Virus record (IMG/VR): IMGVR_UViG_2778261571_000008
DNA length: 5,990 bases
Source of the DNA: a virus
Taxonomy: Duplodnaviria; Heunggongvirae; Uroviricota; Caudoviricetes
Strand: one strand, 5' to 3'
Below are positions 1 through 5,990 of the stretch, piece after piece. The position numbers and the translations under genes were made by a program. The notes below the pieces were generated by a model that had not been told where the DNA came from, did no database searches, and saw nothing but the letters and a program-made list of their open reading frames with translations. The stretch's first letter is position 1. Each line of letters begins with the position of its first letter.

Positions 1-16
1 TTTTTGTGAAGTCGTC
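1..16. repeat. Left copy of 16-bp terminal direct repeat TTTTTGTGAAGTCGTC
   Basis: Exact 16/16 identity with positions 5975-5990, read directly from the sequence. Chance identity at both exact termini is negligible. Confidence 0.9.
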
Positions 17-322
17 TAATTCATCGCCGAAATATTCTCGATAATCTGGAACGCGCTGTTCTGAAATTGCGTTTGTGGCGATGTCTGGTTTATCGGCTTG
101 TAGTTTATCGACGTTTGCCAGATATACGCCCAGCGACCCAGCTGACCCCATTACCGCCAGCATTCTGCTACGTTCTGCGGCATTGGGAGCGATTGAGGCC
201 AATTGCGCTTTAATTTTGCTTACCTCTTCATCAATGACCCTCTGAATAAGCGGGCCGTTTGCCTGAAGAACTTCCTTAGTAATTTCCTGTGCCAACTGGC
301 GAATATATTCTTTGCGTGTCAT
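1..322 (-). CDS. Hypothetical acidic protein (orfA), N-terminal segment; runs off the window start with no stop
   Basis: ATG at 322-320 with a GGAG-like SD about 10 nt upstream. Open for 107 codons (MTRKEYIRQLAQEITKEVLQ...YREYFGDELDDFTK) to position 2. Absent from the ORF track because it has no stop in the window. Frame-continuous with the ORF entering at 5990 (see 5868-5990). No family recognised. Confidence 0.55.
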   Translation of the reverse strand, partial: MTRKEYIRQLAQEITKEVLQANGPLIQRVIDEEVSKIKAQLASIAPNAAERSRMLAVMGSAGSLGVYLANVDKLQADKPDIATNAISEQRVPDYREYFGDELDDFTK

Positions 323-681: not shown

Positions 682-1200
682 CTATAAAATGGCGTTGCTA
701 CATGAAAAATATGATCTTGCTGCGTATAATCGCCGTGGTTTTTCACCAGAACACGGCATCAACATCCAGCGCGGTTTGTGTTTAGTTAGCGCCTTGCGCG
801 GCTGCTGATGCGGCTTGCGCGGGCTGGCGGCGTTCTCTGCTACTGATACGATCTCAAGATTTGAAAGGCGGTTATCAGTGCCGTTGCCATTTTTATGATT
901 TACGCAAAAACCGGGTTTAATCGCATCAAAACCGCAAGTCAGCCAGATCACAATATTATGCGCTCTGAATAGTTTCTTTTTGCCGTTAACTGTTACGACA
1001 ACCCTGTAATAACGGTGCTTGTTACGGCATTTATATTTACGACCATCACGCTTAATTTTGTATTTCTTTTCAGACGGCTTAAGGCATAGCTCATGACCGT
1101 CACGATCTAAACCTGTTTGCGATCTGCTGTTTACTGTAAAGCGCCGTTTAATTTCTTCCTGATACTCAGGCGGCGGTATTAGTGGCGTTGGCATTGACAT
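682..1200 (-). CDS. HNH endonuclease (HNH_3-type motif)
   Basis: Translation contains RAHNIVIWLTCGFDAIKPGFCVNHKNGNGTDNRLSNLEIVS, the classic H...N...HxNGNxxDNRxxNL HNH signature; the His of VNH is encoded at 897-895. Preferred start is ATG at 1200-1198 (SD GAGTGAGGT, 5-nt spacer) rather than the track's GTG at 1212, which lies inside the SD. Stop TAG at 684-682. Confidence 0.8.
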   Translation of the reverse strand: MSMPTPLIPPPEYQEEIKRRFTVNSRSQTGLDRDGHELCLKPSEKKYKIKRDGRKYKCRNKHRYYRVVVTVNGKKKLFRAHNIVIWLTCGFDAIKPGFCVNHKNGNGTDNRLSNLEIVSVAENAASPRKPHQQPRKALTKHKPRWMLMPCSGEKPRRLYAARSYFSCSNAIL

Positions 1201-1215
1201 GTTTAACCTCACTCA

Positions 1216-1404
1216 TTAACGTTTACGTCCGCGATAGAAATATTCCAGGACTTCACTACGAATAAAGCGGAGCGGCGTTCCTTCAGGGCTAACAGGAATT
1301 GGAAAGCCGGGGATTTTATCTACCCACCTGAGAATCGTGCGCTTGCTTACACAAAAAAGTCGAGCGACTTGTTCGCAGCTTATCAATTCGGGAAAGTCGT
1401 TCAT
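1216..1404 (-). CDS. AlpA-family / excisionase-like HTH DNA-binding protein (about 62 aa)
   Basis: Translation MNDFPELISCEQVARLFCVSKRTILRWVDKIPGFPIPVSPEGTPLRFIRSEVLEYF fits the AlpA/Xis-type HTH pattern (helix, TIyrw, FP-P, then W/E-rich tail). Strong SD AAAGAGGTGA 6 nt before ATG at 1404-1402; the track's start at 1413 is GTG and overlaps the SD. Stop TAA at 1218-1216 is 15 nt before the HNH start. Confidence 0.75.
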   Translation of the reverse strand: MNDFPELISCEQVARLFCVSKRTILRWVDKIPGFPIPVSPEGTPLRFIRSEVLEYFYRGRKR

Positions 1405-2310
1405 TTTCATCACCTCTTTAAAAAAGAGCGGTGGCTGAAAAATATGGAGGAAACAACCACCGCCGTGAACGAAAATAGGCTATATCGGAGAAGTTGATAT
1501 AAATATTTTAATCCCCGCGTCGTACGTGTGCAAACACGGCTTCATTGTCGAATATGGCGTTTTTGTGTAATTAGCAGATCTGGTTTTGATACCCGTCATC
1601 GATATTCAGTCAACTAAAAGGCTGGTTTTGGCCTAAGTGTTGAATGGCACTTTTGGAACGCGTCCGATTTCCACGGTTAATCAGCCACCACGATCCAGAC
1701 GGTAGAATGCGGCTTTCAGCCTGCTGAAATGTGTAACATTCCTGCGCTTTAACAAGATCGGGCTATCTGGTACAGATGGCGGCGGCGATCTGTATTTGGT
1801 GGCGGACTAATCTGCGCAGAATCCCGCTGATTTCTTGATGGCAATAAAGCTAACCATAGCGATTCTAAGCGCCTCATCTTTGCCGGTATGCAAACGGTCA
1901 GCCATGTCACATTGAGCGCGTCAGAGGCGCTACTGTGAAGCGGTGCTATAGCTGCGGCGTATCATTGCCAGCGTCATCGTCGTCACGGGAAAAGCTGTAC
2001 ATGCGGGGATCGAGATAGTCGATACAGAAAACCCCGTCATACAGGAAAGCGAGTGCCGTAGCGCAAGCGAAGGCACCAGGCATGTAGCTACGCGCTGAAT
2101 GCGAGTCACAACAGCTTAACAAAAGCACATACATCGCGATAACGCGGTAACACATCCGGCACCACATGCGTAACTGTGTGTTACCCCAGACGTGGCGCGG
2201 CTCTCAGGCTGATTTTGTCTTTTCCGGTCCCACATCTCGGGTACTTTCCAAAACTTTCTACTTTATAAAAATGGAGTAGAAAACAGAGTGAAATCTTTTT
2301 TTTCTGATTT

Positions 2311-2330
2311 ATCTGGTACCATCTGGTACC
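2311..2330. repeat. Perfect tandem 10-bp direct repeat ATCTGGTACC x2 (forward iterons)
   Basis: Read directly: atctggtacc atctggtacc. Each unit contains a GGTACC hexamer. Confidence 0.85.
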
Positions 2331-2366
2331 CATAGAATATATGTAACTACATCAATAACTTAAGTT

Positions 2367-2400
2367 GGTACCACATCCGGTCCCACATCGGTCCCACATC
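2367..2400. repeat. Three tandem inverted-orientation iterons (GGTACCACATC-C-GGTCCCACATC-GGTCCCACATC)
   Basis: Read directly; 11-12-bp periodicity, about one helical turn. The reverse complement GATGTGG(T/G)ACC matches the forward iteron ATCTGGTACC at 8-9 of 10 positions. Confidence 0.85.
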
Positions 2401-2423
2401 CTGCATCTGGTACCATTTTGACC

Positions 2424-2451
2424 AAAAAAAAGCCAACCCCGAAGGATTGGC
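2424..2451 (-). terminator. Rho-independent terminator downstream of the replication gene
   Basis: On the minus strand: hairpin GCCAATCC-TTCG-GGGTTGGC (8-bp stem, one mismatch, tetraloop) at 2451-2432, followed by eight T (plus-strand A-run 2424-2431). It lies 23 nt after the stop codon at 2477-2475. Confidence 0.75.
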
Positions 2452-2474: not shown

Positions 2475-4064
2475 TTACTTGCTCGTAACCTCAGTCATCA
2501 CGTCACTTGCGCTTGCCATTTTGGCTACTTTCGCACGGTCACGCGCTGCCCTTAGTTCGTCGGCAACCTCAAACGGTTTTGCCTGTAGCCAGCGAACGTG
2601 ATTGCGGATAATCCATCCTCGCACTGGTTTTCCGTCAACCTTAACTTGTGGCGCGGCTACCATTCCCGCATCCTCAAACATACGGCGCTGTTTGTTCGTG
2701 ATCTGCGCGTCCACGTCTTCCAGAATGTACTCAGACAGATCTCTGTTGCTGATAATGTCAGAAGGCCAGTCAGCGATCAGTTCATCAAGATATACGCGTT
2801 CCAGCGGTTTGGCTGAGTTAATTGCCCGTAACTTATCCTCATCACACACAGGCGGCTGTTTAATATCGAACCCGCTCAGGTCACGCGTTGCCAGTTGCCA
2901 TCCTAACGCGTTAATCGCTTTGGGATCGCTTATCAGGTCATCAATGCGCTTCGCCATCTCCCTTGCCGCTTCCTTGCCGTATACATCCGCGTATTTGCCT
3001 GAGGTGTGACGGATGACAAACCAGCGGCGATCATGTTCGTCTATTGGCAGTGGGTTGTCATGGTTAGAACACACAAACCAGCGGCACGCGTTCCATTCTT
3101 CATACTTCGCGCCATATTTCACATTAACGCTGCGTACTGGCTCCGTTATCATCGCTTTAAGGCGATTAGCTGTACGGTATTGGCTGTTATCACCTTCCCG
3201 CACTTCGTCGCATGTTGCCAGAACCGCGCCAGCCAGTTCGCTGTTGAACTGCCCTTCAAGTAGCGCATGGATATTAACGCCAGATGCGCAGTTACGTCCT
3301 AACAGGTGTTTTAGGATGTCGCAGAAAGTTGTTCGACCAACGCCCTGAGTTCCGTTTGTGTAATGAAGAATGCCCCAGTGCGGTAGTACCTCAGGGTGCT
3401 GGATCATGTGCGCAATCCAGTTCACTACCGTTACCCACTTGTCACCGAAAAGCCAACGGCAATCATCATAGAATGCGCTGACGTCCGTTTCATTGTCTGG
3501 AAGCCAGATACGCTTTTTCCACAGGTTGAGGCATTTACGACCGCGCGGATCTTCGCAAATTACCGGGCGACCAGGTGCGCAGGTCAGGGCGTCAACAATC
3601 ATGCGCTTATCGCTCTCACGCCAGAGGCTAGTTGTCGGGACGGCCTTCATTTTCAACCCAGCACCCGCGCCGCCGCCAACGTCGATCATCGTTTTACTGG
3701 CGGCATTCATGTTTTTAAACTCTGACCATTTGAAATTACGGTAAGGCTCATCAAGATAAGCAACGCGTTCGCCGTCAGCCACCCAGACACATTTGGTCAG
3801 CATTTCATCCAACGTCATGATCTGCGGCTTCATGGCGTCAACGTCAAGCTGTTGCGGCTCCGTAGCTTTGACTGCGTTTTCCGCAATGCGCTGGCGTTCA
3901 GCTTCGCGCTCTTTGATCTGTTGTTCGGCGATCTCTACGACGCTGGCAAGCTCCTCGTCAGTAGGGCTAATGCGCACACCTGCGCTATTTAGCGGTATTA
4001 CATTTGCGATATTTTTTTCAGCTCTGACCTGGTCATCCGGGCCGTTTTGTGGCATATTAATCAT
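2475..4064 (-). CDS. Replication initiator: SF3 (D5/P4-alpha C-terminal-like) helicase-type protein, 529 aa, with atypical Walker A
   Basis: Motifs in canonical SF3 order and spacing: Walker-A-like HYTNGTQGVGRTTF (R codon at 3335-3333), Walker B AVLATCDEV (DE at 3209-3204), motif C WFVCSNH (N at 3065-3063). SD AAAGAGG 9 nt before ATG at 4064-4062. Followed by terminator and iteron origin. No separate primase domain was recognised by eye. Confidence 0.8.
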   Translation of the reverse strand: MINMPQNGPDDQVRAEKNIANVIPLNSAGVRISPTDEELASVVEIAEQQIKEREAERQRIAENAVKATEPQQLDVDAMKPQIMTLDEMLTKCVWVADGERVAYLDEPYRNFKWSEFKNMNAASKTMIDVGGGAGAGLKMKAVPTTSLWRESDKRMIVDALTCAPGRPVICEDPRGRKCLNLWKKRIWLPDNETDVSAFYDDCRWLFGDKWVTVVNWIAHMIQHPEVLPHWGILHYTNGTQGVGRTTFCDILKHLLGRNCASGVNIHALLEGQFNSELAGAVLATCDEVREGDNSQYRTANRLKAMITEPVRSVNVKYGAKYEEWNACRWFVCSNHDNPLPIDEHDRRWFVIRHTSGKYADVYGKEAAREMAKRIDDLISDPKAINALGWQLATRDLSGFDIKQPPVCDEDKLRAINSAKPLERVYLDELIADWPSDIISNRDLSEYILEDVDAQITNKQRRMFEDAGMVAAPQVKVDGKPVRGWIIRNHVRWLQAKPFEVADELRAARDRAKVAKMASASDVMTEVTSK

Positions 4065-4132: not shown

Positions 4133-4161
4133 GCCCCGGTTGCGACGGGGCTTTGTTATTT
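4133..4161 (+). terminator. Terminator-like GC hairpin plus T-rich run, plus-strand orientation, in the leader between the second alpA-like gene and the replication gene
   Basis: GCCCCG-gttgcga-CGGGGC (perfect 6-bp GC stem, 4133-4151) followed on the plus strand by TTTGTTATTT (4152-4161). It overlaps the stop codon of the 4156-4401 gene. On the minus-strand mRNA the same hairpin forms but is not followed by a U-run. Confidence 0.3.
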
Positions 4162-4401
4162 CTGGTCTATGTATCTTCCGCATTGCTGTAAATCCCTCAT
4201 TAGCTCGTCTCTATGGATTTCGTACCACGCAAGCATGTCGGCTTTTAGCCATAACATCATGTTTCCGCGCCCTCGTGTCATAGGTTCCGGGAAATCCGGG
4301 TAACGACGCATTACGTGGTAAACTGAGCGCCGTGAGCGGTTAAGTAGTTCGCTGACATCTCTTACTGTCATGATGAAATCCTTCACCGTTTGGCCTTTCA
4401 T
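4156..4401 (-). CDS. AlpA-family / excisionase-like HTH DNA-binding protein (81 aa, or 71 aa from internal Met)
   Basis: Translation ...MTVRDVSELLNRSRRSVYHVMRRYPDFPEPMTRGRGNMMLWLKADMLAWYE fits the AlpA/Xis HTH pattern. SD AAAGAGGG 7 nt before ATG at 4401-4399; an alternative ATG at 4371-4369 has a GAAGGA SD. Stop TAA at 4158-4156 is 91 nt upstream of the replication gene. Confidence 0.7.
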   Translation of the reverse strand: MKGQTVKDFIMTVRDVSELLNRSRRSVYHVMRRYPDFPEPMTRGRGNMMLWLKADMLAWYEIHRDELMRDLQQCGRYIDQK

Positions 4402-4743: not shown

Positions 4744-5094
4744 CGAAAACCCGCTGTTTTACTGCCTATTTACCATAATGGATCTTGTGCGCACCATTTT
4801 CCGGTGATTGATTTCTGACCCTGTTTCGACGATAAAGCCATCCATTTTTCTCTGACTCGTAAAAGCTGGCATGAAATTTGATGTGGCGTGATTTGTTATG
4901 ATTGTGTTACCGCCAGTCTTGCCGCTGACGTCGGCTACGCGCGCGCATGTACATGTCCGAAAATTACCCCCATAAAAGCGCCCCTCATATAGTGCAAAAA
5001 CCCGGATGGCGCGGCTTTCGGCGGTTTTAGCATTGAAAACTAACTTCAAAAACGGCCCGCTATCGTTCGCTAACTACTCGCTAACCTCTCTGGC

Positions 5095-5867: not shown

Positions 5868-5990
5868 TTATTCCCCCATATAGAAATAGTCATCTAATTG
5901 ATCGCGTAGTTCTTTTGGTCCGTTAAACCATTCATCAATGGTCGCATTAAATACCGGATCGCCATCGAAGTAGGTTTTTGTGAAGTCGTC
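5868..5990 (-). CDS. orfA, C-terminal segment (enters window at 5990; stop TAA at 5870-5868)
   Basis: Reverse-complement translation from 5990: DDFTKTYFDGDPVFNATIDEWFNGPKELRDQLDDYFYMGE-stop. The first five codons are encoded by the 16-bp repeat and are in the same frame as the final DDFTK of the 1-322 segment. Joined product is 142 aa. Confidence 0.55.
   Translation of the reverse strand, partial: DDFTKTYFDGDPVFNATIDEWFNGPKELRDQLDDYFYMGE
5975..5990. repeat. Right copy of 16-bp terminal direct repeat TTTTTGTGAAGTCGTC
   Basis: Exact identity with positions 1-16. Confidence 0.9.

Follow-up and report, generated by a model that had tools for sequence, protein, structure and literature searches.

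Can a replication protein work with an arginine where the P-loop normally has its Walker A lysine? The question is raised by a 5,990-nt stretch of viral DNA (Caudoviricetes; IMG/VR record IMGVR_UViG_2778261571_000008), the whole of which is referred to here as the window. The minus strand of the window encodes a replication protein, Rep, in which Arg244 occupies the lysine position. The Walker A lysine is among the most invariant catalytic residues, and laboratories routinely exchange it for arginine when they want an ATPase that binds nucleotide but does not hydrolyze it. Comparison of Rep with its homologues leaves very little doubt that the arginine form of the Walker A motif became fixed long ago and defines a clade, and that it is not a mutation of the rep gene. 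What the arginine does is a separate question. It is probably a functional part of a working, self-loading initiator-helicase with a family-specific P-loop. The more demanding proposal, that the Arg-type P-loop is fully catalytic, such that a whole clade of replicative ring helicases would hydrolyze NTP and unwind DNA with arginine, is evenly balanced.

The P-loop of Rep and the helicase core around it

The rep gene and the parts of its product are listed below, with the basis for each assignment in parentheses (AF2, AlphaFold2; ORF, open reading frame; aa, amino acids).

2475..4064, minus strand: rep, encoding the 529-aa initiator-helicase, with its stop codon at 2475-2477 (ORF list)
3327..3353, minus strand: Walker A, G238-T-Q-G-V-G-R244-T-T246 (direct reading; alignment with GKQGTGKG of the NrS-1 helicase; AF2 loop)
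3333..3335, minus strand: codon CGA of Arg244, at the Walker A lysine position (direct reading; homologue alignments)
3204..3209, minus strand: Walker B, Asp286-Glu287 (LATCDE; GAC GAA) (direct reading; shared with relatives that have the lysine, here called Lys-type)
3117..3119, minus strand: Lys316 (VNVKYG; AAA) of the DNA-binding beta-hairpin (aligned to NrS-1 INRKN)
3096..3134, minus strand: strands of this hairpin, with Arg311 (3132-3134) and Glu323 (3096-3098) (conservation; AF2)
3063..3065, minus strand: motif C, sensor-1 Asn334 (FVCSNH; AAC) (direct reading)
3024..3029, minus strand: Arg346-Arg347 finger pair (DRRW; CGC CGC) (direct reading; alignments)
3465..3827, minus strand: N-terminal beta-rich domain, ~aa 80-200, equivalent to a D5_N-like collar or "Head" (AF2; PHROG 1156; Foldseek)
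2478..2840, minus strand: C-terminal domain, ~aa 409-529, a candidate winged-helix origin-binding domain (AF2; analogy with the C-terminal domain of SaPI Rep, PMC9371898)

Direct reading of the minus strand between 2900 and 3500 places GTQGVGRTT between HWGILHYTN and FCDIL. The original prediction had reported an arginine at the Walker A lysine position of a protein with intact Walker B and motif C. The direct reading bears this out, and the coordinates and residues given there for the P-loop, the CGA codon of Arg244, Walker B, and motif C are all correct. The loop departs from the canonical GxxxxGK[ST] pattern, reading G238-xxxx-G243-R244-T245, with the glycines and the +1 threonine present. 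Might GTQGVGRTT be a chance look-alike, with the true nucleotide-binding loop elsewhere in the protein, as the original prediction had allowed? This is extremely improbable. There is no second G-x-G-[KR] motif elsewhere in the 529 aa. The Pfam, NrS-1, and PHROG alignments and the strand-loop-helix of the AF2 model all point to the same place, and the spacing from it to Walker B, sensor-1, and the Arg fingers is canonical.

To which family does Rep belong? The Pfam profile DUF5906 (PF19263) matches aa 238-347 (E 9e-22; 78.3 bits against a curated cutoff of 27.6; profile positions 3-114 of 114), and the C-terminal part of PHROG 1156, "DNA primase," spans aa 69-451 (E 1e-28). Profiles for VapE-like proteins and for the P4-family primase C-terminal region match weakly, as does TIGR01613 primase_Cterm (19.8 bits against a cutoff of 108.7), and the Pfam and NCBIfam profile scans detect no primase domain in Rep. 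The substitution of arginine for lysine is no argument against homology, because 55 of the 55 Arg-clade members tested match the DUF5906 profile. In a phmmer search of the PDB, the NrS-1 helicase (6k9c/6k9e/6lrb) is the sole solved relative by sequence (E 3e-12; aa 213-352), with GTQGVGRT of Rep aligned opposite GKQGTGKG of NrS-1. Lys453 of that NrS-1 motif is the catalytic lysine and touches the bound phosphate in the crystal (PMC7102993).

The AF2 model of Rep (predicted local distance difference test score [pLDDT] 82; predicted template modeling score [pTM] 0.69) has a strand at 231-236, a loop at 237-243, and a helix at 244-258. As modeled, R244 is the first residue of the helix and takes the place of the Walker A lysine in a strand/P-loop/helix of canonical geometry. 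The best Foldseek match in the PDB is the C-terminal region (CTR) of NrS-1 (6k9c; E 5e-17; ~440 aligned columns), followed by SaPI5 PriRep (7ola) and SaPI1 PriRep1 from Staphylococcus aureus pathogenicity islands (SaPIs), C962R of African swine fever virus (ASFV), and D5/E5 of poxviruses. AF2, Foldseek, and the alignment of K316 identify in Rep both the ASCE (additional strand, conserved glutamate) alpha/beta fold and the DNA-binding beta-hairpin of superfamily 3 (SF3) helicases. The Walker B, sensor-1 Asn, and Arg fingers of the DUF5906/D5-type module are present as well. Rep is a D5/P4-type SF3 helicase (DUF5906) without a primase. The label "replication protein" in the original prediction is supported by this fold and by the iteron origin that adjoins the gene (see below).

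Two further domains flank the helicase core in the AF2 model. Strands spanning 92-180 make up the N-terminal domain (pLDDT 85-92). The C-terminal domain (pLDDT 80-92) consists of helices at 409-432, 440-448, and 457-465 followed by a three-stranded wing, which includes the strand at 474-485. By analogy with SaPI Rep, this domain is a candidate for a winged-helix, iteron-binding role, with which its predicted structure is compatible. The extreme N-terminus has a different relative. A 318-aa protein on a 5,989-bp contig (P0019; PF13730, helix-turn-helix putative replication protein) resembles Rep only over its first ~48 residues (68% identity). The shared stretch corresponds to window positions 3921-4064 (minus strand), for which the AF2 model shows a disordered N-terminal part and then the beginning of a helix. 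This segment appears to be a module that similar ~6-kb elements swap among their replication proteins, which are otherwise unrelated.

Conservation, ancestry, and carriers of the arginine form

Could the arginine stem from a lesion, from an error in sequencing or assembly, or from decay of the gene into a pseudogene? The general rarity of arginine at this position in P-loop NTPases is all that speaks for this explanation, and the close relatives of Rep make it barely credible. An identical 529-aa protein is present in NCBI (WP_089632867.1 / EHI0956411.1; two contigs). GVGRTT is found in all 14 motif-covering members listed of a 74-member cluster at 90% identity, and in all 12 sister clusters from E. 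coli, which are 71%-91% identical to Rep. The arginine codon is CGC instead of CGA in one relative (L001; 88% identity) and in plasmid CP058022 (81.5% identity). The ORF runs uninterrupted for 529 codons, and homologues of full length are found down to 28% identity. The possibility of a lesion or of a sequencing error at the CGA codon, which the original prediction had left open, is thus refuted by the identical protein, the cluster members, and the synonymous CGC codons. Further out, the motif reads GVGRST in two proteins with 38% identity (P0013 and P0014), GTGRGW in one with 31% identity (P0015), and GIGRNW and GIGRNL in PrimPol fusions (P0016 and P0026, respectively). G-x-G-K is found in weaker matches, with E > 1e-15 (P0017-P0025). 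At the DNA level, the rep gene has no blastn match in 5,426 complete E. coli genomes; only the flanking satellite genes match.

How widespread is the arginine form? An exhaustive phmmer search of 1.84 billion representatives at 50% identity gave 10,955 matches, with 1,886 below an E value of 1e-10 and 361 below 1e-30. Arginine is present in all of the best 150 of the 10,955 matches (E <= 1.7e-47; 30%-40% identity; mostly 700-1000 aa), the dominant motif among these being G-x-G-R-N-W. A homologue alignment had been proposed in the original prediction as the way to check its reading. In a MAFFT alignment, 149 of 149 representatives have arginine at the P-loop lysine position, making the R244 column invariant, and N245 exceeds 90%. 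Word-indexed homologue searches from alignments gained P0026 and two fragments but fell short of the GRNW clade, which the exhaustive phmmer search revealed. A scan of GTDB with one genome per species returned 57 loci, of which 52 are Arg-type; the four weakest are Lys-type. The Arg-type loci are mostly from Beta-, Gamma-, and Alphaproteobacteria, and their hosts include Stenotrophomonas, Variovorax, Paraburkholderia, Dyella, Cupriavidus, Stutzerimonas, Sphingomonadales, and Rhodobacterales. Among IMG/VR viral contigs, 22 are Arg-type, many of them 45-48 kb long, and 15 are Lys-type, all scoring much weaker.

A midpoint-rooted neighbor-joining (NJ) tree was built from 263 ATPase cores; in it, the 236 Arg-type sequences group as one clade, with none of the 27 Lys-type sequences inside. 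Rep falls within this clade and carries R244, R311, and E323. Among the sampled sequences, the arginine has a single origin. The family-specific P-loop that the original prediction had listed as one possibility is supported: the arginine is invariant in 236 close and moderately distant relatives, and lysine is found only in a separate, more distant branch. Judged from these sequences, the clade is a large monophyletic branch of the DUF5906/D5-P4-type SF3 helicases, with members in phage satellites, small plasmids, temperate phages, and integrative islands, the last mostly of Proteobacteria. The nearest Lys-type sequences read G-x-G-K-N-[LA], which suggests a route from GKN to GRN. All six arginine codons (CGC, CGT, CGG, CGA, AGA, and AGG) are in use across the loci, indicating that the arginine has been maintained through synonymous turnover. 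The AGR codons are one transition away from lysine, yet there are zero reversions among the sampled sequences. The rest of the motif is less constant. The first glycine of GxxxxG(K/R) is absent from most GRNW proteins, in which the loop is apparently one residue shorter (e.g., ANKTGTGRNW). The E. coli branch and a minority of others retain G-x-Q-G-x-G-R, and the invariant core is G-x-G-R alone.

What has become of the rest of the active site? The other catalytic residues are kept. In the Arg clade (n = 224, after removal of close E. coli duplicates), conservation is 96% for D286, 99% for N334, and 100% for E287, K316, R346, and R347. All six residues are common to Lys-type relatives, and K316 is invariant in both clades. 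Additional positions are conserved only in the Arg clade, including W246, E221, R311, and E323. R311 is present in 96% of the Arg clade versus 4% of Lys-type sequences, and E323 in 99% versus 0%. In the AF2 model, strands 310-314 and 320-324 form the hairpin that carries K316, and R311 and E323 are probably a clade-specific cross-strand pair, likely a salt bridge, that is unrelated to the P-loop.

Other clade-specific residues lie closer to the arginine. N-W follows at +1/+2 in 177 of 236 Arg-type cores, and W246 is absent from Lys-type relatives. Rep has I221 and T245-T246, as against E221 and N-W in the majority. Strict coupling of E221 to N245/W246 was considered and rejected, as several Arg-type lineages pair a hydrophobic residue at 221 with N-W. 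Because lineages mix the states at 221 and at N-W, R244 is independent of E221. A compensating lysine elsewhere was also dropped as an explanation: between aa 181 and 370, the Arg clade has no conserved lysine of its own, and "GKGR" variants are a minority.

Among 55 Arg-type proteins, the N-terminal domains are Prim-Pol (9), PriCT_2 (8), Toprim_3 (5), NrS-1-type HBD (3), PriCT_1 (2), RepB_primase (2), and AEP-TOTE (1), and many proteins have no recognized domain. Because Arg-type modules are joined to such varied primase domains, their architecture indicates that they are used in the same way as the Lys-type helicase modules of primase-helicases.

Arg-type genes are also the sole recognizable replication genes on complete circular plasmids of E. 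coli, Proteus, and Klebsiella pneumoniae. E. coli pRHB04-C06_4 (L060; 8,873 bp) encodes a protein 81.5% identical to Rep, with GVGRTT and the same gene order. Proteus pW47-1 (L061) and E. coli pECQ4552_IHU03 encode 771-aa proteins with GTGRNW, and K. pneumoniae pC277_3 encodes an Arg-type protein with GSGRSK. The replication gene of K. pneumoniae pKP-2683-1-6.5 is a Lys-type relative, with GTGKGF. The temperate Escherichia phage vB_EcoM-683R1 has a 753-aa Arg-type gene between cro and Q (AHGTGRGW; codon AGA), and Dyella acidisoli has a Toprim-DUF5906 Arg-type gene after a P4-type integrase. The cultured phages with the strongest remaining matches, Roseobacter RDJL3 and Burkholderia AH2, were candidates for Arg-type carriers and proved to be Lys-type. 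Some relatives are larger, at 8.7-11 kb: a 10.9-kb contig (L001, P0004), pRHB04-C06_4, and Proteus pW47-1. These gain phage-type genes, namely an Sf6-type small terminase, a 787-aa protein, and a tail tape-measure gene, or a serine recombinase. From their gene content, they are plasmid-borne satellite-like elements built around an Arg-type rep.

The circular element and its putative origin

What kind of element carries rep? The ends of the window share an exact overlap of 16 bp (positions 1-16 = 5975-5990; TTTTTGTGAAGTCGTC), and joining them gives a 5,974-bp circle. E. coli chromosomal matches place both window ends side by side. All genes are on one strand, and ~1 kb downstream of rep is without long ORFs. 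The features outside rep are as follows (HTH, helix-turn-helix).

5868..5974 plus 1..322, minus strand: 142-aa (142-codon) ORF of no known family, closed over the junction (end joining)
4156..4401, minus strand: AlpA/excisionase-like HTH_17 gene, immediately upstream of rep and in the same orientation (Pfam E 1.4e-4, below the curated cutoff; weak match to NCBIfam Xis_Gifsy_1)
1216..1413, minus strand: second HTH_17 (AlpA/excisionase-like) gene, upstream of the HNH gene (profile scans)
682..1212, minus strand: HNH endonuclease gene (profile scans)
2424..2451, minus strand: intrinsic-terminator-like hairpin, GCCAATCC-TTCG-GGGTTGGC followed by T8, directly past the rep stop (terminator scan)
2146..2414, no strand assigned: putative origin, with nine GGTMCCASAT iterons in both orientations (pattern search; repeat families)

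The remaining genes of the window are small ORFs without a known family. The 5,974-bp circle, with its two HTH_17 genes, carries no integrase, and the rest of the window gave no matches when scanned for Rfam families, tRNAs, and PHROGs. On profile evidence, Rep is the only recognizable replication protein of this circular replicon, which resembles the phage-inducible chromosomal islands (PICIs).

The region that begins 60 bp 3' of the rep stop codon contains an array of iterons. Where 0.75 matches to GGTMCCASAT would be expected in the window, 10 are found, a number that none of 200 shuffles reached. Nine of the 10 copies are clustered at 2146-2414, and between them is an AT-rich center at ~2237-2310, where GC content falls to 0.39. 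SaPI origins consist of iterons directly downstream of rep, in opposed directions, around an AT-rich center (PMC9371898), and in the PICIs of Gram-negative bacteria the "ori is downstream of pri" (PMC10111431). The layout here is the same, with opposed short iterons and an AT-rich center directly downstream of rep. By this analogy, the iteron array at 2146-2414 is the probable origin of replication.

Two further observations concern the relationship of the element to E. coli chromosomes. A 37-bp stretch of the window (4909-4945) is 100% identical to the yffP-yffQ intergenic site within the CPZ-55 cryptic prophage of E. coli K-12. This stretch accounts for the matches of >=99% identity in 213 complete E. 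coli genomes, in which the surroundings are unrelated or ~80% similar. The conservation of the 37 bp is so strict that it points to a site with a function, for example as a signal for regulation or packaging, common to CPZ-55-like elements. A role as an att core was rejected, as the stretch lies inside CPZ-55 and not at the prophage border. The second observation comes from the chromosome of E. coli E47 (L059; NZ_CP121151.1, 1,707,800-1,713,500), where relatives of the HNH, HTH, and small genes are in an island beside intZ. This island is at the eutB locus, which is the CPZ-55 site, and its annotation gives the gene at the rep position as a pseudogene with a frameshift.

Proposed function of the arginine P-loop and comparison with known systems

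How might Rep work? In the proposed mechanism, its C-terminal winged-helix-like domain would bind the inverted iterons that flank the AT-rich stretch directly 3' of rep. Rep would self-assemble into hexameric rings on the AT-rich center, like SaPI Rep/PriRep and P4 alpha, and the hexamer would translocate on single-stranded DNA (ssDNA) via the Lys316 hairpin. Translocation would be driven by NTP hydrolysis at a site comprising the Arg244 P-loop, Asp286/Glu287, Asn334, and, in trans, Arg346/Arg347. The guanidinium of Arg244 would replace the lysine amine at the beta/gamma-phosphate contact.

This functional reading is favored because the catalytic and DNA-binding residues are kept, because the module is fused to primases, and because it is the sole replication gene on persisting plasmids and in a phage. 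Several points weigh against it. Engineered Walker A Lys-to-Arg mutants, including RecA K72R, Rad51 K191R, and others, usually bind nucleotide and lose most hydrolysis, so a natural arginine cannot be taken for catalytically competent. Selection for ATP-dependent ring assembly alone, or for a slow single-turnover switch, would likewise be expected to preserve Walker B, sensor-1, and the Arg fingers. The sole PDB relative by sequence, NrS-1, is Lys-type. The census query was itself Arg-type, and the peptide pattern of both contig scans came from Arg-clade sequences; the counts given above measure the breadth and coherence of the arginine form and do not give its frequency within DUF5906. The NJ tree is based simply on distances, is rooted at the midpoint, and carries no support values.

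The possibilities listed in the original prediction also included a regulatory variant and an ATPase-impaired initiator relying on a helper or host helicase, the latter of which can be framed as a hydrolysis-poor nucleotide switch. ATP binding would drive ring or filament assembly and origin melting, turnover would be very slow, and unwinding would be passed to host DnaB or to a helper-phage helicase. In favor of such a switch, the engineered mutants typically bind nucleotide and hydrolyze it poorly. The E. coli branch has lost the primase domain and is already dependent on the host for priming, and the element resembles a satellite living beside helper phages. Furthermore, SaPI Reps bind and melt origins without ATP (PMC9371898), so initiation need not rely on hydrolysis. 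However, Glu287, Asn334, the Arg fingers, and Lys316 are 99%-100% conserved in >220 diverged Arg-type sequences, which fits a translocating motor better, and the strict conservation of the Asp-Glu pair, Asn, Arg fingers, and hairpin Lys argues against a dead ATPase. The module is joined to primases exactly like Lys-type replicative helicases, and the 6-9 kb plasmids have no gene for a second helicase or a loader. A switch is less likely than a working motor, with an appreciable probability of its own. Alternatively, the arginine may mark an active enzyme with non-classical chemistry: a changed ligand (a preference among NTPs and dNTPs) or a phosphate site that needs no metal or is coordinated differently. 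The replacement of Ser/Thr by N-W after the arginine in most Arg-type cores, with a tryptophan never found in Lys-types, is consistent with this idea. So is the looseness of the family at the Mg-ligand position, since NrS-1, with Gly at +1, hydrolyzes ATP and four dNTPs (PMC7102993); Torsins also function with GKN (PMC5628414). Against it, the branch that includes Rep has T-T after the arginine, which is the classical Mg-ligand position, so the arginine does not require N-W. No sequence feature identifies a different ligand, and this speculative reading is considerably less probable than the switch. A hydrolyzing, translocating helicase remains the preferred account of Rep.

What are the implications of a natural Arg-type P-loop? 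The Lys-to-Arg change is natural, ancient, and strictly kept in at least 150 protein clusters at 50% identity, and probably in several hundred. Certain plasmids and satellites and at least one temperate phage apparently have an Arg-type protein as their only replication protein. If the Arg-type proteins are active, they would be a natural counter-example to the textbook rule that the lysine is indispensable and that a K-to-R change kills hydrolysis, with a P-loop remodeled around a guanidinium, and they would caution against annotating R-for-K proteins in genomes as "dead." If they are fully catalytic, the co-evolved N245/W246 and E221 would reveal the way in which a P-loop is rebuilt around this group. 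If they are instead slow switches, they would be a class of primase-linked initiators obliged to hand over to another helicase, and this would change the view of how satellites and islands replicate. The question is tractable, with a 529-aa E. coli protein encoded beside a 270-bp candidate origin.

How does Rep compare with known systems? The D5/P4 helicase module and the SaPI-like origin layout are already known; the clade-wide Arg P-loop appears to be new, with no published description found. The literature searched contains no description of a natural Arg-type Walker A in DUF5906, SF3, or primase-helicase proteins, although absence there is not proof. The "Walker A arginine" of the literature is a different residue, inside terminase P-loops. 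The nearest documented natural deviations are at +1, in Torsin (GKN; PMC5628414) and in NrS-1 (GKG; PMC7102993).

Among fold relatives, NrS-1 and SaPI Rep are verified NTPase/helicases that require the Walker A lysine (PMC7102993; PMC9371898). NrS-1, a hexameric SF3 helicase, is divided into head, body, and tail regions and has its motifs in the same order as Rep: the WLAxxxQ helix, the P-loop, Walker B, the K-hairpin, the sensor-1 Asn, and the RR finger pair. Its Arg555/Arg556 are the fingers, and its "KN" hairpin (Lys525) binds ssDNA (PMC7102993). Rep Arg346/Arg347 are the equivalents of Arg555/Arg556, and Rep Lys316 is the equivalent of both Lys525 and E1 Lys506. NrS-1 differs in having GKQGTGK453G and an N-terminal Prim/Pol, whereas Rep has arginine and no Prim/Pol, and the two are only ~19% identical. 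The SaPI Rep/PriRep proteins (7ola, 7om0, 7pds; Foldseek E 6e-8) have a C-terminal helical/winged domain, with which the one predicted for Rep is compatible. The SaPIs and PICIs share with the window rep followed by an opposed-iteron origin, an alpA-like HTH gene upstream, and unidirectional genes (PMC9371898; PMC10111431). SaPI Reps have a Walker A lysine (K186, K521), the change of which to alanine abolishes replication, and they are 12%-14% identical to Rep. The usual PICI context is int + alpA + pri/rep in a single direction, with induction by a helper phage; here, there is an alpA-like gene and a one-strand arrangement, but on a circle without an integrase. Torsin GxxxxGKN (PMC5628414) has Asn at +1, like most of the Arg clade, but retains the lysine.

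P4 alpha, D5/E5, and ASFV C962R (TIGR01613 primase_Cterm; Pfam DUF5906/Pox_D5) belong to the same superfamily as Rep and have the same motif set (Foldseek E 1e-5 to 1e-6 for D5, E5, and C962R). The Arg-type relative in Dyella has the Toprim-helicase architecture of P4 alpha and adjoins a P4-type integrase. All of P4 alpha, D5/E5, and C962R have GxxxxGK[ST], whereas Rep has arginine and no primase domain. RecA K72R and Rad51 K191R represent the same chemical change as that in Rep, but these mutants are laboratory-made and crippled, whereas the arginine of Rep is natural, invariant, and set in an otherwise intact catalytic site.

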